Notes: a model not told the origin generated them from the sequence alone. A stretch of DNA of 64,000 nucleotides from Gammaproteobacteria bacterium (GCA_050287605.1 JBNKCG010000081.1:18-64017), one strand, 5' to 3'; numbered from the stretch's first letter, positions 5,322 to 53,379 are shown. Translations and numbers: made by a program.

Positions 5322-6001
5322 CAGCCGTCCTGCACACCCGCCTTGCCGCGAAACAGGTACCCCTGTCCGCGGCGGGTCTCGATGATCTCGTCGCCGAACT
5401 TCTGGCGCAGGCGTTTGATATAGACCTCGACCACGTTGCTGTCGGGTTCGGTATCGCCCTCGTAGACGTGTTCGGTGAGGCGGCTCTTGGAGAGCACCCG
5501 ATCGGGATGGAGCATGAAATAGCGCAACAGGCGAAACTCGAAACCGGTCAGCGTTTCGGAAGCGCCGCCCACGACTGCCGCCTGCTGGCGCTCCTCGTCG
5601 AGGCGGATGCCACCGACTTGCAGGCACGGATCGGCGCGACCGTGGCGGCGGCGCATCACCGCCTGGAGACGGGCCAGCAGCTCCTCGTTGTGAAACGGCT
5701 TGCCCAGGTAGTCGTCGGCCCCTGCCTTGAGACCGTCGACGCGTTCGTGCCAGGCGTCCCGGGCGGTCAGAACCACCACCGGCAGGTCGTTGCCCTGGTC
5801 GCGCCAGCGGCGCAATACCTCCAGGCCGGGGCGGTCCGGCAGCCCCAGATCGAGAATCGCCGCGTCGAACGGCTCCTCTTCGCCGAGAAACTGGGCATCG
5901 ATACCGTTGTCGGCCACGTCTACCGCGTAGCCGGCCTGTTCCAACGCCGGTTTTAGCCGGCGAACCAGCAGCTCATCGTCTTCCACCAGCAGCAGTCGCA
6001 T
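5321..6001 (-). CDS. OmpR-family response regulator (receiver domain plus winged-helix DNA-binding domain)
   Basis: MRLLLVEDDELL…DLGLPDRPG…VVVLTARD receiver domain. C-terminal winged helix (EFRLLRYFMLHP…VYIKRLRQKF). Confidence 0.85.
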   Translation of the reverse strand: MRLLLVEDDELLVRRLKPALEQAGYAVDVADNGIDAQFLGEEEPFDAAILDLGLPDRPGLEVLRRWRDQGNDLPVVVLTARDAWHERVDGLKAGADDYLGKPFHNEELLARLQAVMRRRHGRADPCLQVGGIRLDEERQQAAVVGGASETLTGFEFRLLRYFMLHPDRVLSKSRLTEHVYEGDTEPDSNVVEVYIKRLRQKFGDEIIETRRGQGYLFRGKAGVQDG

Positions 6002-6005
6002 CGAT

Positions 6006-6302
6006 TCAGTCGTCTTTCTCGGCATCCAGCAGCTGGCCGCTCACGGCGTCGTATTTCAACTCCCACACCAGGCCCGCGTCGTCGACGATCTCGAGGTGGT
6101 AGTAGTAACCATCGCCCTTGCGTTTCAGTTCCGCTTCCAGCAAGCGTCCCGAGTACCGGCTGCGCGCGGCATCCAGGATTTGCGCCAGCGGTACCACACG
6201 CCCCTCCTCGACCCAGCGCCGCACCTGCTCGTGATCATCATCGGCGCAGGCACCGCCAATGGTACCGATGAGCAGAATCGCAACAAGCAGAACGCGTGAC
6301 AA
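6006..6302 (-). CDS. PepSY-domain periplasmic protein
   Basis: 98 aa with a signal peptide. The GDGYYYHLEIVDDAGLVWELKYDAVSGQLL segment is typical of a PepSY fold. Sits immediately upstream of the two-component genes. Confidence 0.65.
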   Translation of the reverse strand: MSRVLLVAILLIGTIGGACADDDHEQVRRWVEEGRVVPLAQILDAARSRYSGRLLEAELKRKGDGYYYHLEIVDDAGLVWELKYDAVSGQLLDAEKDD

Positions 6303-6306
6303 CTCG

Positions 6307-6873
6307 CTAATCCTCCCAGCGCCCCAATCCGGGGATGTGCACGGTGTGCTCGTTGAATACCCCGCGCTCGGCTTCAGTATGGCAGCTGTCGCATTGGGAA
6401 AAACGTAGCGTGCGATCGCCCTGCTGCATCACCCAGCGGGGGATCTCGTCGTGCTTGCGCTGGAAATAGCGCGTCTCGGTGATGCGCAACACGGACGCGT
6501 CCCGTGGCACAGAGTCGGCAAAGCGGCGCGAACGCCGGTAGTCCGAGCGGTCTGCCGCCCGCTTGTCGAGATAGTCGACAATCTCCGCCGCCGTGGTCGC
6601 ATCGAGTTCGGCGTTCTCGCCGAAATGACGATCCAGCCGGTTCATGACCGCCTGCCACGAACGCGCCGGCAGCAAACCCGGCGGGTAGGCAAGATGGCAA
6701 CTGCCGCACTCGTCGCGGTAGAGCGCGTTGTCCACCGGCGCCACGTCCACGCGCGCCTCGTGCCACACACGCGACCACCAGCCGCCGTGACGATCGTCGT
6801 CATCACCCAGCGCAATGGCGCTGGCCGCCATCAGGCAGCCGGCGCCCAGCACGCCCCACACGCTATTTCTCAT
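6307..6873 (-). CDS. Di-heme cytochrome c (DUF1924-like)
   Basis: Two CxxCH motifs (CGSCH and CDSCH). Signal peptide. Overlaps the 3' end of the cytochrome b561 gene. Confidence 0.7.
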   Translation of the reverse strand: MRNSVWGVLGAGCLMAASAIALGDDDDRHGGWWSRVWHEARVDVAPVDNALYRDECGSCHLAYPPGLLPARSWQAVMNRLDRHFGENAELDATTAAEIVDYLDKRAADRSDYRRSRRFADSVPRDASVLRITETRYFQRKHDEIPRWVMQQGDRTLRFSQCDSCHTEAERGVFNEHTVHIPGLGRWED

Positions 6874-6907
6874 TGGAGCCTCCCTGCGTCGAGTGGCCGC
6901 GACCAAC

Positions 6908-7477
6908 CTATTCCGTAGCCCGTTTGCGCCCATTGATCATGGCGCGTACCAGGTTTTCGCCGTGCTGGAGACTCGCCACCGCTACGCCGATGACGTGCAG
7001 CACCACCAGCGTCAGCGTGAAATTGGCGAACAGTTCGTGAATCTCCTTGACCAGATGGGCACCCGACTTGCCCACGCCGGCCATCAACCCCGCCAGCGGG
7101 CCGGCAAGCTCTTCGCCGCCGTAAGCGGCGAGACCCGTGAACACCGTGCACACCAGGTTGATCAGCAGCAGCACCACCATCGCCCCACCGGCGGGATTGT
7201 GGCCGATGTAGCGGCGCGGCTGAAAGGCGAGAATGTCTTTCAGATAGTCCACCACCACGCGCGGATGGCGGACGAAGTCGGCAAAACGCGCATAGCGCGT
7301 CCCCACCAGGCCCCATACCAGCCGGAACAGCACCAGGCCACCAATGAAATAGCCGCTCACCACGTGCAGCGACTGCACCTCTTCGGCGCTCAGGAAACTG
7401 ACGGTGAACGCCAACACCAACGACCAATGGAAGACCCTGACCAGCGGGTCCCACACCTTGATGACATCTACTGACAT
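6908..7477 (-). CDS. Cytochrome b561 family protein (CybB-like membrane di-heme b)
   Basis: 189 aa with four TM helices and conserved His residues in VFHWSLV and HVIGV. The start MSVDVIKVWD is at 7477. The long ORF-track extension (453 aa) lies in the same reading frame but is not supported as coding. Confidence 0.8.
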   Translation of the reverse strand: MSVDVIKVWDPLVRVFHWSLVLAFTVSFLSAEEVQSLHVVSGYFIGGLVLFRLVWGLVGTRYARFADFVRHPRVVVDYLKDILAFQPRRYIGHNPAGGAMVVLLLINLVCTVFTGLAAYGGEELAGPLAGLMAGVGKSGAHLVKEIHELFANFTLTLVVLHVIGVAVASLQHGENLVRAMINGRKRATE

Positions 7478-7615
7478 GGAGAAATCCTCAGCTATGGAAT
7501 AACGGCGAGCGTAACGATAGCGGGGACAACTTAAACCAAGCTGAAAGTATCGGCGGCATGGGATTTTGAGATGGGTTCTTGTATGCTGGCGCGCCGACCG
7601 TAGCGGCCTTGGACG

Positions 7616-8284
7616 ATGGGGTGCGCGATGCCAACCAGCGACGAACAGCGACTCGAACTGATAGCGACCATGCGCGCCCTCAACGCCCAGGGCATCAACC
7701 AGGGCAAGTCGGGCAACGGCAGCGTCCGCACCGAAAAGGGCTTCCTGATCACACCGTCGGCGGTGTCCTACGACACCCTGACCCCCGACGATATCGTGGC
7801 CATGAATTTCGACGGAACCTGGACCTGTTCCGCCGGCCGCCGCCCGTCCAGCGAATGGCGTTTTCACCGCGACATCCTGCAGGCCCGTCCCGAGTTCAAC
7901 GCGCTGCTGCACACCCATGGCCGGGCGGTGAGCACGCTGGCCTGTCTGCAGCGTTCGATCCCAGCGTTTCACTACATGGTGGCCATCGCCGGCGGCACCG
8001 ACATCCGCTGCGCCGGCTACGCCACCTTCGGCACCCAGGCCCTCTCGGATCTCGCGCAGGAGGCCCTCGCCGGACGCAAGGCCTGCCTGCTGGCCCATCA
8101 CGGCCTCATCGTGGGCGGTGCCAGCCTCAGCGAGGCCTTTGCCATCGCCGTGGAGGTGGAGCATCTGGCCGAGGTGTACTGGCGCATCCTGCAGATCGGC
8201 GAACCCGAGATTCTGGACGACGAAGAGATGCAGCGCGTACTGGCGCTGTTTCGCGCCGGGTACCAGCACACGGACAAGGGTTGA
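7616..8284 (+). CDS. Class II aldolase/adducin-family protein. Either methylthioribulose-1-phosphate dehydratase (MtnB) or an Ald2-like aldolase.
   Basis: Metal-binding His cluster (LLHTHGRAVSTLA … HHGLIVGG) typical of fuculose-phosphate-aldolase-like enzymes. Confidence 0.7.
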   Translation: MGCAMPTSDEQRLELIATMRALNAQGINQGKSGNGSVRTEKGFLITPSAVSYDTLTPDDIVAMNFDGTWTCSAGRRPSSEWRFHRDILQARPEFNALLHTHGRAVSTLACLQRSIPAFHYMVAIAGGTDIRCAGYATFGTQALSDLAQEALAGRKACLLAHHGLIVGGASLSEAFAIAVEVEHLAEVYWRILQIGEPEILDDEEMQRVLALFRAGYQHTDKG

Positions 8285-9115: not shown

Positions 9116-10125
9116 TGCGAACTCCCTTCGCCCTCGTCCGCCAGCGCCGGGTCGCGCGGCGCCTGGATCAGCAGCCGGTCATCGGGCTGCGCCAGATGCG
9201 GCGCGATGAGAAAGTTCTTCTGCGACGCGCGCAGGGTGCGATCGGCCTCGTAGAGGACGTTGCGACCCTCCTGCACGATGCCCGCCAGTTGCGGCGTCGC
9301 CGCGCGCAGCTGCCCCGAGACCGTCTTCAGATCGTCGAGGATCTGGGCGATGTCCACCGCATGGGCGGGAAATTCCCGGGTGCTGCTCTCCAGGCGCTCC
9401 AGCGTGACGGCGACGCTGCCGAGGATGCGATTGAGTTCGCTCTGGGTCTGGATGACGCGCTGGACCACCTCGGCGCTGTTGCTGGTGATCTGCTCCAGGT
9501 TGGCGAGACTGCGGTGGAATTCGTCTTCCGTGCGCAGCAGCGAACCCGACAGCTTCGCGAACTGCGCGAGGCTTTGGTTGAAGCTGGCCAAACCGCTTTG
9601 CAGGTCGCCCTGCGGGTCCAGGAGCCGCGAGGACAATTCGGCGTGATTGGCGAGAATCTTGTCGATCTGCTCCAGGCGCTGCGGCAGGTTGGCCATCAGA
9701 TCGGGCAGCCCGCTGGTCTGGATCAGCGGCAGCTCACCATTCTCGGCGATGGCGGGTTGGTCCGATGCGCCGATGGCGATGTCGATATAGGGATTGCCGA
9801 ACGGAGGATTGATGAGGGTGGCGCGCGAATCCTCGCGGATCTTGTCGCGGTAGCGTTCCTCGATCTCCATCACCACGCGGATCTGGTTGTCGGAGGTGAT
9901 ATCCAGCGCCTTCACGCTGCCGACGGAGATGCCCGCCAGGGTCACCGGCGTGCCAACGCGAATGGTGTCGGCCCGGCTCACCACGGCGTGGACGGAGAAA
10001 CGGTGTGCGAACGGAATGGCCTGCCCGCGCAGCTGGTAGACCAGATAGAACAGCGCCAGGAGGGTGAGCAGGATCAACAGCCCCACCAGGCGCTTCTGAT
10101 TGACCTGCGCAGCGGATGAACTCAT
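9112..10125 (-). CDS. MCE-family (MlaD-like) substrate-binding protein with a long C-terminal helical extension
   Basis: N-terminal TM segment and an MCE domain (VGTPVTLAGISVGSVKALDI…). The start MSSSAAQ at 10125 is ATGA-coupled to the ATPase stop. Confidence 0.8.
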   Translation of the reverse strand: MSSSAAQVNQKRLVGLLILLTLLALFYLVYQLRGQAIPFAHRFSVHAVVSRADTIRVGTPVTLAGISVGSVKALDITSDNQIRVVMEIEERYRDKIREDSRATLINPPFGNPYIDIAIGASDQPAIAENGELPLIQTSGLPDLMANLPQRLEQIDKILANHAELSSRLLDPQGDLQSGLASFNQSLAQFAKLSGSLLRTEDEFHRSLANLEQITSNSAEVVQRVIQTQSELNRILGSVAVTLERLESSTREFPAHAVDIAQILDDLKTVSGQLRAATPQLAGIVQEGRNVLYEADRTLRASQKNFLIAPHLAQPDDRLLIQAPRDPALADEGEGSSH

Positions 10126-39454: not shown

Positions 39455-40126
39455 TCACCCGAGACCGGCCTTGCCGATCAGCACCAGGGGTACCGGTGAG
39501 ACCGCCAGCAGAATCAGCGCCAGATAGTGCGGAAACGGAAACAGCCCACTAATGCCCGCCGCAATGCCGATGCCGCCGCCCCCACCGATGAAGGCGTTGC
39601 CGGGCGTGTTCAGCGCCACAGCCAGCGCCAGGTAGCGATGGCGCAGGAAGAACGACAGCCAGCGCGTGGGTACGCGCCGCGTGAGATAGAGCATGCGCTG
39701 GTGGGGCGTCATCTCCTCCATCTCGTGAACCAACGCCTCGCCGCGGCGCAGCCCCAGCCACCCCAGCACTCCGCCCAGCAGCGACACCGGCACCAGGCGG
39801 CCCAATCCATAACTCAGCGCCAGCGACAACACCGTAGCACCGTAGACCAGCAGGATGCCCGGTACACCGCCTACCAGCATGACGAACAGTCCCAGTTCGA
39901 TGCCGGGAACAAAAGGCATGGCCAAGAACAGCACATAGGCCGTCAGGACCGCGAACAGCAGCAGGTAATCGCGCCCGCGGAGCGAGACGAGCAGATCGCT
40001 GACCCGCAGTTCCAGCCGGCTCCCCACCCAGTAGACGAGCGCGATCGCTACCACCAGCAGGCCCACCCGCAGGAACAAACGCGTGCGATCGCCACGGATG
40101 CGATGGTCGTTGGGATGCACCGCCAT
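39455..40126 (-). CDS. Hypothetical polytopic inner-membrane protein
   Basis: 223 aa with about six hydrophobic helices. No recognisable motif. Confidence 0.45.
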   Translation of the reverse strand: MAVHPNDHRIRGDRTRLFLRVGLLVVAIALVYWVGSRLELRVSDLLVSLRGRDYLLLFAVLTAYVLFLAMPFVPGIELGLFVMLVGGVPGILLVYGATVLSLALSYGLGRLVPVSLLGGVLGWLGLRRGEALVHEMEEMTPHQRMLYLTRRVPTRWLSFFLRHRYLALAVALNTPGNAFIGGGGGIGIAAGISGLFPFPHYLALILLAVSPVPLVLIGKAGLG

Positions 40127-42216: not shown

Positions 42217-43038
42217 ATGCCCCCATCAAAGATCGTATTGTCCCTGATCGCCGCGGCACTGCTTGGGAGCGGCGGAACCGCGCTCGCGGCGGATGCCGCG
42301 GCCGCCAAAGACAAGGTGCTGCTCACCGTCAACGGCAAACCCGTCACCGCGGAAACACTGGATTTCTACACCCAGCGCCGGCTTGCCGACGGCAGTGCCC
42401 AGCCCGACAGCGCGGGTCACGCCCCCAACCTGATGAACGATCTGGTGGCGCTGGAGCTGATGGCCCAGCAGGCCGAAAAGCAGGGATTGCAGAAAGAGCG
42501 CTCGGTAAAGATGCTGCTCGACCTGACCCGCAAGAACCTGCTGGCGCAAAATCTCATGCAGTCCTATCTGCGCGAGCATCCGGTGACCGACGCCGAGCTC
42601 CACAAGGCTTACGATCTCGTCAAGGACCGCATGTACGGAGCGCAGTACCACGTCTACCACATCCAGGTGGCCGACGAAGCCAAGGCGCGCGACTTGATCG
42701 CGCAACTGAAACAAGGCGCCGATTTCGCTGCGCTGGCCAAAGCCAACTCTCAGGACCCGACCGGTGCCTCCGGTGGCGAGCTGGGCTGGTTCGGCAAGGG
42801 ACAGATGCCGCCGGAGTTCACGGCGGCGATCGAAAAGACCCCCGCAGGTTCCGTCGCCGAAGAGCCGGTGAAAAGCAGCCATGGCTGGCACGTGGTGCGT
42901 GTCGCCGCCACCCGCCAGCAGCCGCCGCCCAGCTTCGAGGATGCACGGCAAAACCTGGAATCGCTGGTGCGCAACCAGCAACTGCAGGCCTACGTGGTCC
43001 AACTGCGTTCGGAGGCCAAGATCGAACAGCCCAAATGA
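42217..43038 (+). CDS. Periplasmic PpiC-type (parvulin) peptidyl-prolyl cis-trans isomerase
   Basis: Signal peptide. Parvulin domain (…GGELGWFGKGQMPPEF…SSHGWHVVRV…). Confidence 0.8.
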   Translation: MPPSKIVLSLIAAALLGSGGTALAADAAAAKDKVLLTVNGKPVTAETLDFYTQRRLADGSAQPDSAGHAPNLMNDLVALELMAQQAEKQGLQKERSVKMLLDLTRKNLLAQNLMQSYLREHPVTDAELHKAYDLVKDRMYGAQYHVYHIQVADEAKARDLIAQLKQGADFAALAKANSQDPTGASGGELGWFGKGQMPPEFTAAIEKTPAGSVAEEPVKSSHGWHVVRVAATRQQPPPSFEDARQNLESLVRNQQLQAYVVQLRSEAKIEQPK

Positions 43039-43100
43039 TGCTGCGGGTCGAGTCGCAGCATCCAGCGTGACGAAAAACCGCCCCCGGGCGGTTTTTCTCT
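43037..43100 (+). terminator. Tandem intrinsic terminators after the ppiC-like gene. The second is bidirectional (A-run / hairpin / T-run).
   Basis: GATGCTGCGGGTCGAGTCGCAGCATC hairpin, then AAAAACCGCCCCCGGGCGGTTTTTCTCTTTG. Confidence 0.7.
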
Positions 43101-43213
43101 TTGTACTCACCGCGTTGCGTGCTCGGCGCAGGCGCGGCGACGGAGACTGACATGATCCCATCACGGGCGTCCGCTATCCTTGGACTCATGCCAACCACCA
43201 ACGAGACATCGTT

Positions 43214-44329
43214 ATGAGGGGGAAGATCATCGTCTGGATGGTGCTGTTCCTGGGCCTGGTGGCCGTGGTCAGCGCCCTGCTCTATCCGGCGCTCAAAGGC
43301 GCCTTTCTCGCCAACCCCGTCTTCAACGGAATGATCATCGGCGTACTGCTGATCGGCATCGCCGTCAACTTCCGTCAGGTTGCCGCCCTCAATCCGGAGC
43401 TGGCGTGGCTGGGCGAGCGGCGCCGCGGCGAGACCGGCGCGGATGCGGGCAAGATCCAACTGCTGGCGCCGTTGACGCGCATGCTGGCGGCCCGCGAAGG
43501 CAAGCTGCGCATCTCCGCCATGGCCGCGCGCTCGGTGCTGGACGGGCTGCGCATGCGCCTCGACGAGCACCGCGACGTGTCGCGCTACCTGGTGGGGCTG
43601 CTGATTTTTCTCGGCTTACTGGGCACCTTCTGGGGCTTGCTGGACACCGTCTCCTCCGCCGGCAAGGTGATCGCCGGACTTCAGGTGGGCGGCGCCGACG
43701 TCGGCGAGGTGTTCGAGCGCCTGAAGCAGAACCTGCAGGGGCCGTTGACCGGCATGGGTACCGCCTTCAGTTCGTCGCTGTTCGGCTTGGGCGGCGCCCT
43801 GGTACTGGGATTTTTCGATCTCCAGGCCGGCCATGCCGAGAATCGCTTCTTCAAAGCCGTGGAGGATTGGCTGGCCGAAGCGACACACCTGGCGAGCCCG
43901 GCCTTCGCCGACGGCGAAAGCTCCGGCCCCGCCTATATCGAGGCGTTGCTGGACAAGACCGCCGACAGCCTCGAGGCCCTGGAGCGGCTGGTGGGCCGCG
44001 GCGAGGAGGAGCGCGCCAGCATGCGCGAGCAACTGCTGCAGCTCACCACGCGTCTCTCCGAGGTGAGCGACCAGATCCGCGCCGAGCAGCAGCTCACCAA
44101 GGGGCTGGCGCGCCAGCATCAGGAGCTGCAACCGCTTATCGCCCGGCTCACGGAAGCCATCGAACGCGGCTCCGATGCCCAGGAGGGACTGCACGATCAT
44201 CTGCGCGGCCAGGAGAGCGCGCTACGCGAAGTCACGCAGGCCAACAGCGCGGCCCAACGCGAACTGTTGGACGAGCTGCGCCAGGAGCTGCGGTTGATGA
44301 CGCGCGCCCTCAGCGCACGCAACGACTGA
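43214..44329 (+). CDS. MotA/PomA-like proton-channel (stator A-subunit) protein with a 165-aa C-terminal coiled-coil tail
   Basis: 4-TM MotA topology: TM1/TM2 at the N-terminus, a roughly 70-aa loop, then TM3 (GLLGTFWGLL) and TM4 (TAFSSSLFGLGGALVLGFF). This parallels PomA GMIGTLIGLV and ALVTTLYGAILSN. The tail is heptad-rich. Confidence 0.75.
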   Translation: MRGKIIVWMVLFLGLVAVVSALLYPALKGAFLANPVFNGMIIGVLLIGIAVNFRQVAALNPELAWLGERRRGETGADAGKIQLLAPLTRMLAAREGKLRISAMAARSVLDGLRMRLDEHRDVSRYLVGLLIFLGLLGTFWGLLDTVSSAGKVIAGLQVGGADVGEVFERLKQNLQGPLTGMGTAFSSSLFGLGGALVLGFFDLQAGHAENRFFKAVEDWLAEATHLASPAFADGESSGPAYIEALLDKTADSLEALERLVGRGEEERASMREQLLQLTTRLSEVSDQIRAEQQLTKGLARQHQELQPLIARLTEAIERGSDAQEGLHDHLRGQESALREVTQANSAAQRELLDELRQELRLMTRALSARND

Positions 44330-44336
44330 CGACGCA

Positions 44337-45653
44337 ATGTTCACCCTCACCCGTCGCGCCCGCACCATCAACATCTGGCCGGGGTTCGTCGACGCCCTCG
44401 CCTCGGTGCTGCTGGTGTTCATCTTCATGCTGCTGTTCTTCGTCATCGCGCAGTTCTACCTAAGCGGCGTGCTGGCCGGACGCGAGGCGGCACTGGAAAA
44501 GCTGACGCGCAATATCAACGAACTGGCAGACACCCTGGCGCTGGAACGCGACAAGAGCGCCGGCCTTGAGCAGCAGGTAGCGCGACTGGATGCACACCTG
44601 CGCGCAACCCTGGCCGAGAAGGAGGAGCTGGGCAACCGTTTACTGCTCACCACGCAGCGGGCGCAGGTGGCGGAACAGGCACTGCAGGCCGCGCGCGAAA
44701 CCGTCACGGCAGACAAGGAGGCGATTCGGCTCAAGCTGCTGGAGATCGCAAGCCTGCAGCAGGACATCGACGCGTTGCGCAAGCTGCGCGAGGAACTGGA
44801 GAGCAAGGTGTCCGGCCTCGCCGGCGAGTTGCAGCAGCGCAGCGCCGAGCTGGGCGCTGAACGCGACCGCAGCCAACAATTGGAAGCGCAACTGGCCAAC
44901 CAACGCGAGCGCACCCTGCTGGCGCAACAGACGCTGCAACAGCGCGACATCCGCATCGCCGACCTGGGGGCGCAAGTGGTCTCCCAGGATCAGGCGCTCG
45001 CGGAGCAGCAACGGTTGAGCGAACACCGCCAACAGCAGATCGCCCAGCTCAATCAGCAGATTGCCGCGCTGCGCGAGCAGATCGCCCAGCTCTCCGCGGC
45101 GCTCGATCTGGAGCAATCGCGCGTCAAGGCGCAGCAGGTGGAGATCGCCGATCTCGGCCAGCGGCTCAACCTGGCGTTGGCGCAGAAGGTGCAGGAGCTC
45201 AACCGCTACCGCTCGGAATTCTTCGGGCGCCTGCGCGAGGTGCTGGGCAATCGCGAGGACATCCGCATCGTCGGCGACCGCTTCGTGTTCCAGTCGGAGG
45301 TGTTGTTCGCCACCGCCGAGGCAGAGCTGGGCGAGAACGGCAAGCGCCAGATCGCGGCATTGGCGACCTCGCTCAAGGAGGTGGCGGCGCGCATCCCCGG
45401 GGATCTCGACTGGGTGCTGCGCGTGGACGGACACACCGACCGCCGCCCCATCAACACCCCGCAGTTTCCCTCCAACTGGGAGCTCTCCAGCGCCCGCGCG
45501 CTCTCCATCGTGCGTTACCTGATCAGCCAGGGCATCCCGCCCCGGCGATTGGTGGCCGCCGGTTTCGGTGAGTACCGTCCTCTAACCACAGCCGACACGC
45601 CAGAGGCATGGCAACGCAACCGGCGCATCGAGATCAAACTGACGTTGCCCTAG
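44337..45653 (+). CDS. MotB-like protein: N-terminal TM with conserved Asp, a roughly 250-aa periplasmic coiled coil, and a C-terminal OmpA-like peptidoglycan-binding domain
   Basis: INIWPGFVDALASVLLVFIF resembles the MotB TM helix with its protonatable Asp. OmpA_C motifs DGHTDRRP and NWELSSARALSIVRYL. Begins 8 bp after the MotA-like stop. Confidence 0.75.
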   Translation: MFTLTRRARTINIWPGFVDALASVLLVFIFMLLFFVIAQFYLSGVLAGREAALEKLTRNINELADTLALERDKSAGLEQQVARLDAHLRATLAEKEELGNRLLLTTQRAQVAEQALQAARETVTADKEAIRLKLLEIASLQQDIDALRKLREELESKVSGLAGELQQRSAELGAERDRSQQLEAQLANQRERTLLAQQTLQQRDIRIADLGAQVVSQDQALAEQQRLSEHRQQQIAQLNQQIAALREQIAQLSAALDLEQSRVKAQQVEIADLGQRLNLALAQKVQELNRYRSEFFGRLREVLGNREDIRIVGDRFVFQSEVLFATAEAELGENGKRQIAALATSLKEVAARIPGDLDWVLRVDGHTDRRPINTPQFPSNWELSSARALSIVRYLISQGIPPRRLVAAGFGEYRPLTTADTPEAWQRNRRIEIKLTLP

Positions 45654-45934
45654 GACAGAGAGGGCTTTGCGAAGCGTACCACCACCGTGAGTGGTGCCCC
45701 GCGCCAAGACAGCACGTTTGAGTGGGTCGTGTTTTCCTTGGCGATCTCGACTCTGGCTTCCTGCTTCGTTCTACCTCCTGCATCCCTGCGGTCGTTGTCG
45801 CCTTGGTGAGAGTTCATCGGTTGTTGTTTGTCTAAAAACCTTGTCCGCTCGCCAAGCCGCCATGAACGGCACACGCGTTTTTCGACGATTTGTATTTCGT
45901 GCGATTTGCGTCTTCGCGTTATCAATAGCCGTCG

Positions 45935-49857
<3,923 letters not shown>

Positions 49858-49869
49858 GCCGCTATCCGC

Positions 49870-52800
49870 CTAGCCCGCCGCCATCTGGATGGCGTCGTCC
49901 ACGTCCACCGCCACCAAGCGCGATACGCCGGGCTCGTGCATGGTGACGCCGGTGAGGTGGTTGGCCAGTTCCATGGTGGTCTTGTTGTGGGTGATGAAGA
50001 TGAACTGCACGCGCTCGGACATCTCCTTGACCAGGTCGCAGAAGCGCCCCACGTTGGCCTCGTCCAGCGGTGCGTCCACCTCGTCGAGCATGCAGAACGG
50101 CGCGGGATTGAGGTGGAAAATGGCGAACACCAACGCCACCGCAGTCAACGCTTTCTCGCCGCCGGAGAGCAGGTGAATGGTGCTGATGCGTTTGCCCGGC
50201 GGGCGCGCCATGACGGTAATGCCGGTATCGAGCAGGTCGGTACCGGTCATCTCCAGGTAGGCGTGACCGCCGCCGAACAGGCGCGGGAACATCTCCTTGA
50301 GTCCGCTGTTGACCTTGTCGTAGGTCTCCTTGAAACGGGTACGGGTCTCGCGGTCGATCTTGCGGATGGCGTTTTCGAGCGTGTTGAGCGATTCGGTGAG
50401 GTCCGCATACTGCGAATCGAGATACTCCATGCGCTCGCTCTGCTCCTTGAACTCGTCGATGGCCGCCAGGTTGATGGGCCCCAGGCGCTGGATGCGCTGG
50501 GCGATATTCTCCACCTTCTCGTGCCACTCATCGCTGGTCGCCGATTCGGGCATCTCGTCGAACAACGCCTGCAACGCGAAGCCGGTCTCCAGGATCTGTT
50601 CCTCCACGGTCTGGCGACGCACGTGGATGCCCTGCCACTCCATGCGCAGGCGGTCGAGCACTTCGCGCACCTCCTGCACCTTCTGTTCGGCAGCGCTGCG
50701 TCCCTGCTCCAACGCGCGCAGGCGCTCGTCGATTTCCTCGACCTTGTGCCGCGCAGTACCCAACTCCGCCTCCACGGCGATGCGCCGTTTGAGCAACTCC
50801 TCCAGTTCCGAGGACAGTGCCTGATTCGGCGCCACCGCCTGGCGCAACGCCTCCTGCAGCTCCTCGCGCCGCGTCGCCAAATGGGAGATCTGGCTTTGCA
50901 TGCGCTCCAGACTCTGCTGGGTGGAGGTGCGGTTGGAGCGCATCGACTCCACACGCAGGGCCATTTGATGCACCTGGTCGCGGTCGCTGCGGGCGCGGGC
51001 GCGGCGCTCGTCGAGCAGGGTTTCGTGTTCGCGGCGCTTCTCCACCAGCGCCTCGCGGCGGCGTTGAAACTCCTCCATGCGCTCGACGGCACCATCGAGC
51101 CGTCCGCGCGCTTCGCGCACCTGGGTTTCGTCGCGCACGATTTGCTCTTCGGAGTCGCGCAACTCGCGGTTCAAGCGTTCGCTCCGCCCCTTGGCCTGAT
51201 CCAGCCGGCCGCGCTTGCTGGCCAGTTGTGCCTGGATCTCCGCTTTGCCGTTGTTGAGCCGGTTGAGCTGCGCCTGCAGCTCGTCGCGGCGTTGCTCTTC
51301 GTCGCCCAGCGTCTCGCGGTTGTTCTCCAGCGCGAGTTCGAGATCCGAGACGCGCCGGTCGAGGCTGTCGATGAGCGCGTTCAGCTCGCGGCGCTCTTTC
51401 TCGCGCTCCAACACACCGGCCCGCGCGTCGCTTTCGCGGACCACGCGCAGCCAGTGACGCCCCACCCAGATTCCGTCGCGGGTAACCACCGAACCGTGGG
51501 CCGGAAGCCGCTCGCGCAACCGCAGCGCCTCGCCGAGGTCTTCCGCGGCGTAGACATCCTGCAGCAGCCCCCCCAGCGGCCAGTCGCCGCTCACCTTGGC
51601 GGCCAACGCGATCGCACCGTCCAGGTTGCCGCCCGCCGTGGTTTGGTTGCGTTCGAAGAGGGTCACGGTGCCCCCGGCGATGCCGCTCAACAGTTCGGCG
51701 TAGGCGTCGATGCCGTCCACGCACACCGCTTCGATGCTGGGTCCTAGCACAGTTTCCACCGCGCGTTCCCAGCCGTTTTCCACCTGCAACTCCTTGGCCA
51801 GACGCGGCGCCTCCTTGAGGCCTTGGCGCTCCAGCCAGCCGGCCACCACACCCTTGCCTTCGCCCAGGGCCGCCTGCTGCAGCGCCTCGATGGAGGCGTC
51901 GCGCCCACGCGCGTTCTGCAGCTCGGTACGCGCCTGGTGGATCTCCTGGCCGTAGCGGGAATTCTGGTCGCGCAGGGTGCCGATGCGCTCGCTGAAGCCG
52001 CCCAACTGCGCCTCCATCTCGGCGCCTTGGGCGACGCGCTCCGTCATCTGTGTCTCGAGTTCGCCGATCTCGCGCTCCAGCGTCTCCCAGGAGAGGCTTT
52101 GCAACTCCTGTTCACCGCGCTTGATGGCATCACGCGCGCGCATCAACTGCTGATCGAGGTGCTGGATACGGGTGCGTTCCACCTCCGCGGTTTGCGCCGG
52201 TTCGGCCGCCAGGCGGTTGAACTCCTCCCACTCGGCCTGCCAGGTGCGCATAGCCTCCTCGGCGGCGGCCAGCTGGGCGGCCGACTCGCCAGCCTGCCCC
52301 TCGGCGGCGTTGATCTGCGGCTCGTGGGTTTGCAACTGTTCGGCCAACTCATTGAGGCGGTGCTGGTCGTTGTGGATGTGCGACTGCGCCTCCTGCCACG
52401 CTTTTTCCACCTGCTGCAGGTCGTGCTGTTGGCGATGTTCGGTCTCTTTGCCGTGCTGGATTGCCTGTTCGACGCGGGCGATCTCGGCGCCGACGCCGTA
52501 GTAGCGGCCCTGCACCTCGTTGAAGGCGTCGTTGGCCTCCACCTGCTGCGCCCGCCCCTCTTCGATCTGGCGCTCCTGGGCGCGCTGCTCGGCCAGCGCC
52601 GATTCGCGGCGCGTCTCCTGCTCGCGGATCTTCTGCTCCAGCGCCTTGTCCTCGCGATCGAGACCGCGCCAGCGCAGCGCCAGATGCTCGGCCTTGAGGC
52701 GGCGCTCCTCTTCTTTGAGCACCTTGAAGCGCTCCGCCGTCCTGGCCTGACGCTGCAGGTGCTGAAGCTGTTTGGCCACTTCTTCGCGCAGATCCTCCAG

Positions 52801-53379
52801 GCGCTCCAGATTCTCGCGGGTGTGGCGCATGCGGTTCTCGGTTTCGCGGCGCCGCTCCTTGTATTTGGAGATGCCGGCGGCCTCCTCCAGGTAGACGCGC
52901 AGCTCCTCGGGTTTGGCCTCGATGAGCCGCGAGATCATTCCCTGTTCGATAATGGAGTAGCTGCGCGGCCCCAGGCCGGTGCCGAGAAAAACGTCGGTGA
53001 TGTCGCGGCGCCGACAGCGTGCGCCGTTCAGGAAGTAGTTGGACTGGCCGTCGCGCGAGACGACGCGCTTTACCGATATCTCGGCATAAGTGGCGTACTG
53101 TCCGCCCAGCGAACCGTCGCTGTTGTCGAACACCAGTTCGATGGAGGCCTGCCCCACCGGCTTACGCGAGGTGGAACCGTTGAAGATCACGTCGGCCATG
53201 GAGTCGCCGCGCAGATTCTTGGCTGAGGTCTCGCCCATCACCCAGCGCACCGCGTCGATGACGTTGGATTTGCCGCAACCGTTGGGTCCCACGATACCGG
53301 TGAGATTGCTGGGCAGGGGGATACTGGTGGGATCGACGAACGACTTGAACCCAGCGAGTTTGATCTTCTTCAAGCGCAT
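49870..53379 (-). CDS. smc: Chromosome segregation protein SMC
   Basis: 1169 aa. Walker A (GPNGCGKSN), long coiled coils, a hinge, and the C-terminal signature LSGGEKALTAVAL with Walker B (CMLDEVDAPLD). Confidence 0.95.
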   Translation of the reverse strand: MRLKKIKLAGFKSFVDPTSIPLPSNLTGIVGPNGCGKSNVIDAVRWVMGETSAKNLRGDSMADVIFNGSTSRKPVGQASIELVFDNSDGSLGGQYATYAEISVKRVVSRDGQSNYFLNGARCRRRDITDVFLGTGLGPRSYSIIEQGMISRLIEAKPEELRVYLEEAAGISKYKERRRETENRMRHTRENLERLEDLREEVAKQLQHLQRQARTAERFKVLKEEERRLKAEHLALRWRGLDREDKALEQKIREQETRRESALAEQRAQERQIEEGRAQQVEANDAFNEVQGRYYGVGAEIARVEQAIQHGKETEHRQQHDLQQVEKAWQEAQSHIHNDQHRLNELAEQLQTHEPQINAAEGQAGESAAQLAAAEEAMRTWQAEWEEFNRLAAEPAQTAEVERTRIQHLDQQLMRARDAIKRGEQELQSLSWETLEREIGELETQMTERVAQGAEMEAQLGGFSERIGTLRDQNSRYGQEIHQARTELQNARGRDASIEALQQAALGEGKGVVAGWLERQGLKEAPRLAKELQVENGWERAVETVLGPSIEAVCVDGIDAYAELLSGIAGGTVTLFERNQTTAGGNLDGAIALAAKVSGDWPLGGLLQDVYAAEDLGEALRLRERLPAHGSVVTRDGIWVGRHWLRVVRESDARAGVLEREKERRELNALIDSLDRRVSDLELALENNRETLGDEEQRRDELQAQLNRLNNGKAEIQAQLASKRGRLDQAKGRSERLNRELRDSEEQIVRDETQVREARGRLDGAVERMEEFQRRREALVEKRREHETLLDERRARARSDRDQVHQMALRVESMRSNRTSTQQSLERMQSQISHLATRREELQEALRQAVAPNQALSSELEELLKRRIAVEAELGTARHKVEEIDERLRALEQGRSAAEQKVQEVREVLDRLRMEWQGIHVRRQTVEEQILETGFALQALFDEMPESATSDEWHEKVENIAQRIQRLGPINLAAIDEFKEQSERMEYLDSQYADLTESLNTLENAIRKIDRETRTRFKETYDKVNSGLKEMFPRLFGGGHAYLEMTGTDLLDTGITVMARPPGKRISTIHLLSGGEKALTAVALVFAIFHLNPAPFCMLDEVDAPLDEANVGRFCDLVKEMSERVQFIFITHNKTTMELANHLTGVTMHEPGVSRLVAVDVDDAIQMAAG

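Follow-up and report, generated by a model that had tools for sequence, protein, structure and literature searches.

A MotA/MotB-like gene pair with long coiled coils in a gammaproteobacterial housekeeping locus: a probable envelope motor distinct from flagellar stators and Zorya

Introduction

What does a pair of MotA- and MotB-like genes do in a region where every neighbour is a housekeeping gene? The question is raised by a 64,000-nucleotide stretch of DNA from a gammaproteobacterium (GCA_050287605.1 JBNKCG010000081.1:18-64017; the window, hereafter), in which two adjacent genes, here called A and B, occupy positions 43214 to 45653. Known ion-driven 5:2 motors serve four kinds of process, namely flagella, transport and division by the Ton/Tol systems, gliding and type IX secretion, and Zorya defence. 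An earlier note, made from the sequence of the window alone, had read A and B as a stator-like pair with coiled-coil extensions on both subunits and had regarded them as a candidate for an undescribed envelope machine.

We conclude that A and B probably form a peptidoglycan-anchored, ion-driven motor of the MotAB/ZorAB (5:2) superfamily. It would most likely be a housekeeping device that acts at the envelope or at cell poles, serves neither as a flagellar stator nor in phage defence, and couples the condition of wall or periplasm, or the ion-motive force, via the tail of A to a target in the cytoplasm or the inner membrane. The features that the pair shares with the 5:2 superfamily are a ring-subunit fold and conserved channel-lining helices in A and, in the adjacent B, a transmembrane (TM) helix with an invariant Asp. 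The two genes and their parts are as follows (AF2, AlphaFold2; aa, amino acids).

43214-44329, plus strand: gene A, an open reading frame of 371 aa; subunit of the MotA/ExbB/TolQ/ZorA fold, presumed to form the pentameric ion-channel ring
43226-43387, plus strand: TM1-TM2 hairpin of A, the peripheral helices (residues 5-25 and 36-58; hydropathy; AF2 helices 4-22 and 35-70)
43388-43579, plus strand: cytoplasmic loop of A (residues 59-122, about 64 aa; alignment invariants)
43580-43822, plus strand: channel-lining helices of A, TM3 (123-147, LLIFLGLLGTFWGLL) and TM4 (181-203, GMGTAFSSSLFGL), with a 33-aa periplasmic loop between them (invariant columns)
43919-44326, plus strand: cytoplasmic tail of A (residues 236-371; AF2 helices 241-318 and 323-367; register trace; conservation)
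44337-45653, plus strand: gene B, an open reading frame of 438 aa; MotB-type subunit, presumed to form the dimeric wall-anchored axle
44376-44459, plus strand: TM helix of B (residues 14-41; alignment invariants; translation)
44460-45245, plus strand: periplasmic coiled coil of B (residues 42-303; AF2, register trace, spacing modulo 7, alignment)
45033-45092, plus strand: 21-nucleotide (nt) tandem repeat of one heptad (QQIAQLN) in the B coil (Tandem Repeats Finder; 2.9 copies, 69% matches)
45261-45644, plus strand: OmpA/MotB-type peptidoglycan-binding domain of B (residues 309-436; Pfam, PDB profile, Foldseek, invariants)

Both genes certainly encode proteins. About 8000 significant homologues were found for each among 8000 candidates scored, and the product of gene A matches an NCBI protein at 100%. 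Mean column identity was 65-66% in the alignments of A (40 sequences) and B (35 sequences) to which the invariant residues below refer.

The A subunit

Hydropathy and AF2 placed the TM helices of A at residues 5-25, 36-58, 123-147 and 181-203. Positively charged residues lie on the side predicted to be cytoplasmic, and the topology is, by these predictions, MotA-like with four TM helices. TM3 and TM4 are the best-conserved part of the protein; the frequency of the top residue is 82-89% across the representatives of 50%-identity clusters, and the motifs LGLLGTFWGL and GMGTAFSSS are invariant. These two motifs would supply the Thr/Ser ring known as a feature of other 5:2 motors (PMC11890865). 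The cytoplasmic loop has, just before TM3, an invariant charged motif (R106, D110, R113, R115, D117, and R120). Behind TM4, a short low-confidence linker leads into the tail of about 130 residues, which holds a single heptad phase between residue 236 and about residue 340 and would measure about 19 nm if it is a single continuous helix. Conserved motifs of the tail are PAYIEALLxKTADSLE and, close to the C-terminus, ELRxELRL. The length of A is nearly constant over the family, at about 365-390 aa.

A Foldseek search with the A model retrieved ExbB 5sv0, TolQ 9ddm, ZorA 8vvn/8qyd, and MotA 6ykm (probability 0.98-1.0, E from 1.6e-3), with ExbB and TolQ as the top structural matches (E about 2e-3). 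The A protein of the window matched the PADLOC profile of ZorA1 with an E of 1.7e-13, and all 40 family members matched the ZorA1 models, with a best E of 2.7e-16, and the ZorA3 models, with a best E of 2e-12; these matches cover the TM3-TM4 core. The ZorA profiles were the best matches of A in all libraries searched. The NCBIfam models of MotA, PomA, and MotP gave no match to A at E <= 1, and no MotA-type model matched any of the 40 family members at E <= 0.01; the NCBIfam ExbB and TolQ models did not match either. NCBIfam ZorA_4 scored 11.8 bits against a cutoff of 500, and no curated NCBIfam model for this A subunit was matched.

The B subunit and its phased coiled coil

B begins with a basic N-terminus, followed by the TM helix in which W14, P15, F17, V18, and D19 are invariant and G16 is nearly so; the codon of Asp19, the putative channel residue, lies at 44391-44393. 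The AF2 model of B (pLDDT, predicted local distance difference test, 76) consists of a helix that runs unbroken from the TM segment into the coil (14-182), a second helix (199-303), and the OmpA-type domain. The model and the register trace leave neither a plug nor a flexible linker between the TM helix and the coil. The coil comprises 262 residues and would be about 39 nm long if extended (0.1485 nm per residue).

The C-terminal domain was identified by Pfam PF00691 (residues 324-429, E 2.9e-16), and it matched MotS both in the PDB profile search (9ljk, E 5.7e-27) and in Foldseek (9ljl, E 1.9e-12); in structure, it is nearest to the periplasmic domains of MotS, MotB, and PomB. The canonical motifs G-H-T-D, N-W-E-L-S-x-x-R-A (of the form N-x-x-L-S-x-x-R-A), and N-R-R-I-E are intact and invariant. 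As a whole, B belongs to the NCBIfam group NF006543-NF006546 / NF006542 (PRK09039). It scored 442.7 bits with NF006543 (PRK09039.1-2, 'peptidoglycan -binding protein'; cutoff 305) and was above the cutoff of the sister models NF006544 (379.5 versus 362) and NF006545 (378.5 versus 372). This is a naming model to which no function is attached and which has no counterpart for A.

In the register trace, one heptad phase extends from residue 42 of B to about residue 272, across the break in the AF2 helix. To RYRSEFF, the distance from the TM anchor took 14 distinct values between 193 and 466 residues among 117 close B homologues; 11 of these values, and with them 110 of the 117 proteins, fell in one residue class modulo 7. 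In 60 B proteins from distant species, the spacing between W14 and RYRSEFF ranged from 168 to 479 residues. One class held 43 of them, and 11 more were offset by +4, which is the size of a coiled-coil stutter. When only distinct lengths were counted in this distant set, 20 of 35 were in the main class (P about 3e-8). No such enrichment was seen with the other moduli tested. Since the spacing from the TM helix to the OmpA domain is kept modulo 7, the B coil is genuine. This spacing and the single heptad phase remove the concern, raised in the earlier note, that the predicted coiled coils could be low-complexity artefacts.

Across homologues the B coil comprises 140-450 residues, corresponding to a rod of 21-67 nm, and its two halves vary in length independently. 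The QQIAQLN repeat is a plausible and likely source of slippage, by which the length would vary in heptad steps between species. The best-conserved stretch of the coil, RDRSxQLE...ERTxLAQ...RDIRI at residues 176-206 (44862-44954), overlaps the sole low-confidence break in the AF2 helix of B (183-198) and may act as a hinge or offer a binding site. A continuous coil rather than a folded-back one is tentatively favoured.

Distribution and gene order of the family

A phmmer search over 1.84 billion cluster representatives (50%-identity clusters) found the A family in 2364 clusters at E <= 1e-3 and in 492 clusters at E <= 1e-30, and at least 582 A relatives were confirmed in a scan of one genome per species. 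The best 80 of these at least 582 came from Rhodospirillales (including Azospirillum and Acetobacteraceae), Kiloniellales, Xanthomonadales (Dokdonella and Chiayiivirga), and metagenome-assembled genomes (MAGs) of beta- and gammaproteobacteria. B lies directly downstream of A in 80 of the 82 loci with enough sequence, and its length in the 82 loci varies from 341 to 644 aa, against about 375-390 aa for A.

Outside Alphaproteobacteria, the flanks differ from lineage to lineage among gamma- and betaproteobacteria, and thus the A-B pair is the only conserved unit there. A closely related gammaproteobacterial MAG (locus L086) keeps the upstream context of the window from scpA through the peptidyl-prolyl isomerase (PPIase) gene and has a different downstream neighbour; the gene context of the window was not kept in the other lineages. 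These results bear out the autonomous two-gene operon postulated in the earlier note.

In Alphaproteobacteria, the loci of Rhodospirillales and Acetobacteraceae share the conserved order efp, suhB, a co-directional OmpA-like gene, A, and B. The OmpA-like gene was found directly upstream of A in 43 of the 82 loci, all of them alphaproteobacterial, and is absent from the window (examples among loci L009-L084, L090, and L091 are L073:4819-5925 and, on the minus strand, L091:3526-4377). Its product has a signal peptide, a Pro/Ala-rich region, and an OmpA-family domain. The median gap between this gene and A is at most 49 nt, with several 4-nt overlaps, and the protein may be a third component in the alphaproteobacterial class.

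We searched 72,556 PLSDB plasmid records by tblastn and found no true plasmid with the pair. All five matches were chromosomes of 3.5-4.6 Mb labelled as plasmids; these Sinorhizobium/Shinella replicons (one named 'pSymB') bear rpmE, purE, suhB, and other chromosomal genes and look like mislabelled chromosomes. No match to the pair was found in 50,697 phage records. The GC content of A and B is that of their surroundings. The conserved synteny, the absence from true plasmids and phages, and the ordinary GC content indicate vertical inheritance rather than a mobile defence island.

Genes of the known motor systems were also sought around the pair. No flagellar, Tol/Ton, gliding, or ZorC/D/E genes were found near it in the window, as the earlier note had observed, or in the loci of other genomes examined. 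Specifically, flagellar genes were absent from the flanks of the window pair and of five other annotated loci. The Zorya effector genes zorCD, zorE, and zorFG were found neither in the window nor in the conserved neighbour clusters of the 82 loci nor in the annotated loci, and no ZorC/D/E/F/G, nuclease, or helicase gene was adjacent in about 90 loci. Taken together, these data point to a self-contained, vertically inherited housekeeping module in Alpha-, Beta-, and Gammaproteobacteria.

In Sinorhizobium meliloti (L085, CP090106.1 3079352-3092062), the order is thiE, a Sel1-repeat gene, suhB, A, and B, and the A and B proteins are clear orthologues (E 6e-62 and 5e-85). The Sel1-repeat gene (L085:3400-4545), two genes upstream of the pair (5902-8039), matches what has been described for RgsF (SMc03995), an essential polar-growth factor. 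The possibility that one of the Rgs polar-growth proteins of S. meliloti is MotA/OmpA-like was discarded, as the Rgs paper shows that none is. A DNA fragment bound by ChvI has been reported inside 'SMc03993' (PMC3687685). Going only by the locus number, 'SMc03993' may correspond to gene A, and it was not used as evidence.

In a relative of the gamma/beta type (L089), genes with the PF05552 mechanosensitive-channel N-terminal domain lie on both sides of the pair (5378-6835 and 9293-10123), with MgtE genes near. This is a single case and may be a coincidence.

Orthologues in Komagataeibacter hansenii

K. hansenii has no flagella, and its only 'motility-like' genes are the adjacent motA (348 aa) and motB (321 aa) (PMC6570709; Jacek et al.). 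A homologue search with an Acetobacteraceae A protein, intended to reach Komagataeibacter, was uninformative, its top 120 matches being Acidiphilium-like. The gene-specific 3' part of the motA reverse primer published for K. hansenii was used, in reverse complement, to search metagenome contigs. One contig (L091) contained both published motA primer sites without mismatch and both motB sites with one mismatch each. Its two proteins, of 348 and 320 aa, matched the hidden Markov models (HMMs) built from our A and B alignments with E values of 3.4e-115 and 1e-118, and they are 42% (A) and 54% (B) identical to the proteins of the window. The B coil of the contig is shorter (about 130 aa) and is in the main heptad phase class of the family. 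The gene order is efp-suhB-OmpA-like-A-B, as in other alphaproteobacteria. Judged from these sequences, the 'motA/motB' genes of K. hansenii are orthologues of A and B. The primer sites, the HMM matches, and the synteny thus allow the published K. hansenii data to be applied to the A-B family.

Overexpression of motA/motB in K. hansenii lengthened the cells, widened colony spreading threefold, and loosened the cellulose, while disruption mutants were viable and formed denser cellulose (PMC6570709, PMC7347698). MotA and MotB fused to green fluorescent protein (GFP) were polar, and bipolar in longer cells (PMC6570709, PMC7347698). The authors read the genes as motility genes, proposed no mechanism, and described the energy-receiving partner as unknown (PMC6570709).

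Relation to known motors

By PADLOC profile, A comes closest to ZorA, which raises the question of whether the pair is an orphan or minimal Zorya-type anti-phage module, whose A and B would sense envelope damage and signal via the A tail to an effector that is encoded elsewhere or is unrecognised. The ZorA1 and ZorA3 profile matches, the match of B to ZorB3 in PADLOC (E 5e-22), and the cytoplasmic coiled-coil tail, which is a hallmark of ZorA (PMC11946911), are in its favour; like ZorAB of types I and III, the pair also combines a channel Asp and a wall-binding domain in B and has no membrane rotor partner. Nevertheless, such a module is quite unlikely. The pair has no effector genes beside it in the loci examined and stands in a housekeeping setting rather than in a defence island, its efp/suhB synteny is kept across alphaproteobacterial orders, its distribution is not patchy and does not extend to the true plasmids and phages searched, the sequences are highly conserved with A of constant length, and A remains far below the NCBIfam ZorA cutoffs. 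A has four TM helices whereas E. coli ZorA has three, and ZorB joins its TM helix to the wall-binding domain without a linker, where B has a coil of 262 aa and its homologues one of 140-450 aa (PMC11946911). The A tail of about 19 nm also contrasts with that of about 70 nm in E. coli ZorA. The description of the pair as ZorAB-like yet different, given in the earlier note, is therefore well founded. In many genomes, NCBI calls family proteins 'flagellar motor protein MotA' or 'chemotaxis protein MotB', which would suggest a secondary or alternative flagellar stator. With MotAB, PomAB, and MotPS the pair shares the 4-TM topology of A, the W-x-x-[FY]-x-D motif in the TM helix of B, a wall-binding domain nearest to MotS, MotB, and PomB, and adjacent genes in the order A then B; B also matches NCBIfam MotD (E 3e-31), though at 109 bits it is below the cutoff of 283, and overexpression in K. 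hansenii increased colony spreading. We regard a stator as highly improbable, since NCBIfam models of MotA, PomA, and MotP do not recognise A, the loop of about 64 aa gives no MotA model match and lacks the torque-generating cytoplasmic domain, a coil of 262 aa takes the place of the plug helix and short linker in B, no flagellar genes lie near the pair in the loci examined, and orthologues are present in Komagataeibacter, which has neither flagella nor other motility genes (PMC6570709).

The pair could also be a structural staple or spacer between the inner membrane and the wall rather than a rotary transducer, B tethering the two via its coil and A only stabilising or gating B. B is indeed the longer and more elaborate partner with an intact wall-binding domain, its coil varies freely in length between species as a spacer might, and alphaproteobacteria have another OmpA-type gene immediately upstream of the pair. 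We consider this unlikely, because conservation in the two proteins is highest at the channel Asp and in the Thr/Ser-bearing TM3 and TM4 of A, which a passive staple would not need, because the A tail is conserved in length and bears conserved motifs, and because the coil is several times longer than the gap to be bridged. As for ExbBD-TonB and TolQR-TolA-Pal, the structural likeness of A to ExbB and TolQ is set against the three TM helices of these proteins, without a long C-terminal tail, and the failure of the NCBIfam ExbB and TolQ models to match A; ExbD and TolR have no OmpA domain, and no TonB or TolA gene is adjacent to the pair. In functional terms, B resembles a fusion of three parts, a TM helix of the TolR type, a long periplasmic helix like that of TolA, and an OmpA domain like that of Pal.

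As the pair falls outside the stators and Zorya, and likewise outside ExbBD and TolQR, by the features just compared, our verdict is that it is a distinct, mechanistically uncharacterised clade of MotAB/ZorAB-type motors. Literature searches on PRK09039 and on ZorA-/ZorAB-like or MotA-like coiled-coil proteins yielded nothing useful, and the A-B architecture is not described in the FIT/GIT classification paper. The earlier note had held that the pair could be placed in no characterised system. This did not stand, as B exceeds the cutoff of NF006543 and the family has at least 582 matches among species representatives. Its view of an undescribed envelope machine is reasonable in that the pair is unexplained, but family proteins are already annotated, if misleadingly, and the K. 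hansenii orthologues have been genetically perturbed.

Proposed mechanism

Conserved gene order, the absence of effector genes from the loci examined, and the findings in K. hansenii point to an envelope, cell-pole, or division-related role rather than to swimming or immunity. In the wall-anchored motor that we consider probable, five A subunits would surround two B subunits, by homology to solved relatives (PMC11946911, PMC11890865, PMC9389320), and ion flow past Asp19 would turn the A ring relative to B. The B dimer would be held static by the wall, and the A ring with its tail of about 19 nm would be the moving part. The rotating tail may then link its target in the cytoplasm or inner membrane to the condition of the wall or periplasm or to the ion-motive force.

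The gap separating inner membrane from wall is about 9 nm in E. coli (PMC11946911). With a length of about 39 nm here and 21-67 nm in homologues, the B rod cannot be a perpendicular strut across such a gap. The long coil may instead serve as a leash or torsion element, whose seam would have to keep its phase from the TM dimer to the wall-binding dimer; the rod may lie obliquely, fold back at residues 176-206, or bind other factors. The transmission of torque across the periplasm by the B rod, as proposed in the earlier note, fits poorly with this length and with a wall-bound B that should be static.

Several observations weigh against the motor that we propose. The 5:2 stoichiometry, the ion flow, and the rotation are all inferred, no partner for the A tail was found, and the B coil is far longer than the gap between membrane and wall. 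The AF2 monomer of A is moderately confident (pLDDT 68; pTM, predicted template modelling score, 0.41). Pfam MotA_ExbB (PF01618) gave A 17.3 bits against a cutoff of 22.9 and was matched at E <= 0.01 by 19 of the 40 A family members. PDB sequence-profile searches with full-length A, with its N-terminal 254 aa, and with a core-only alignment returned no significant 5:2 A-subunit, the solved ZorA, MotA, and PomA chains giving no significant sequence match; A is thus linked to known motors only via the fold search and the PADLOC HMMs. In view of its similarity in sequence to ZorA, the pair might serve in defence-type sensing. The K. hansenii phenotypes are indirect and were obtained mainly by overexpression, and GFP foci at the poles can represent aggregates.

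If A and B are a motor as proposed, they would represent a further widespread motor clade, a bare two-gene unit with housekeeping synteny. Their architecture suggests a direct mechanical link between wall and cytoplasm, with a wall anchor on a long phased coil outside and a short rod inside. The pair is a plausible non-defence relative of ZorAB and as such bears on the origin of the envelope-sensing module of Zorya. A bolder extension, which we put forward tentatively and hold to be doubtful, is that the family might stand beside stators and Zorya as a third functional class of wall-anchored 5:2 rotary motors. Its housekeeping function would be to report or make use of the mechanical state of wall and periplasm, with the heptad-phased B coil as a leash or torsion spring and a rotating A rod at poles or division sites, and it would represent the chromosomal lineage from which the Zorya sensor module was recruited. 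The assignment corrects the misleading MotA and MotB labels in many genomes, and tractable hosts exist in the K. hansenii mutants, S. meliloti, and Azospirillum.

Boundaries and neighbourhood of the locus

The following non-coding features delimit the pair in the window.

43037-43062, plus strand: first hairpin 3' of the upstream PPIase gene, with a 10-bp stem
43072-43107, plus strand: intrinsic-terminator-like hairpin (43072-43097) with a T-rich tail, between the PPIase gene and gene A; 11-bp stem with 6 GC pairs
45654-45934, no strand: non-coding gap of 281 nt before the convergent class-V aminotransferase gene (from the list of open reading frames)

The predicted RNA fold of 43036-43110, which covers both hairpins, has an energy of -35.9 kcal/mol (z = -4.9), and none of 200 shuffled sequences was as stable. 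A T-run follows the second hairpin only, and this was the sole terminator-like site found on the plus strand between 42 and 47.2 kilobases (kb) in a terminator scan. Of the strong tandem terminator described in the earlier note, the two hairpins were thus found, and only the second is terminator-like. A and B are adjacent open reading frames as described in that note, with a gap of 7 nt (44330-44336) instead of 8 bp; the downstream gap measures 281 nt; and A has both the MotA-type 4-TM topology and the heptad-rich cytoplasmic tail, the latter of about 130 residues. The description of B in the earlier note, with a channel Asp, a periplasmic coiled coil (about 260 residues), and an OmpA-type domain, was confirmed by the alignment, AF2, and Pfam. 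In the 281-nt gap, we found no unusual structure (fold z = -1.0) and no consensus terminator. A promoter scan upstream of gene A detected nothing, and no Rfam family reached its gathering score anywhere in the 64-kb window.

All neighbours of the pair within about 10 kb are housekeeping genes. Upstream lie scpAB, trpS, yciB (Pfam IspA), a YCII-family gene, bolA, and the PpiC/SurA-type PPIase gene; downstream, on the opposite strand, are the aminotransferase gene, ligA, zipA, and smc. The pair is flanked by genes of chromosome segregation and division, with scpA and scpB upstream and ligA-zipA-smc (47103-53379, minus strand) downstream, and the envelope and morphology genes yciB and bolA are also close. 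At 39455-40126 on the minus strand, a hydrophobic protein of 223 aa, for which neither the precomputed annotation nor our own scan gave a Pfam match, is encoded between a Sua5/YciO-family gene and a PHP-domain gene.

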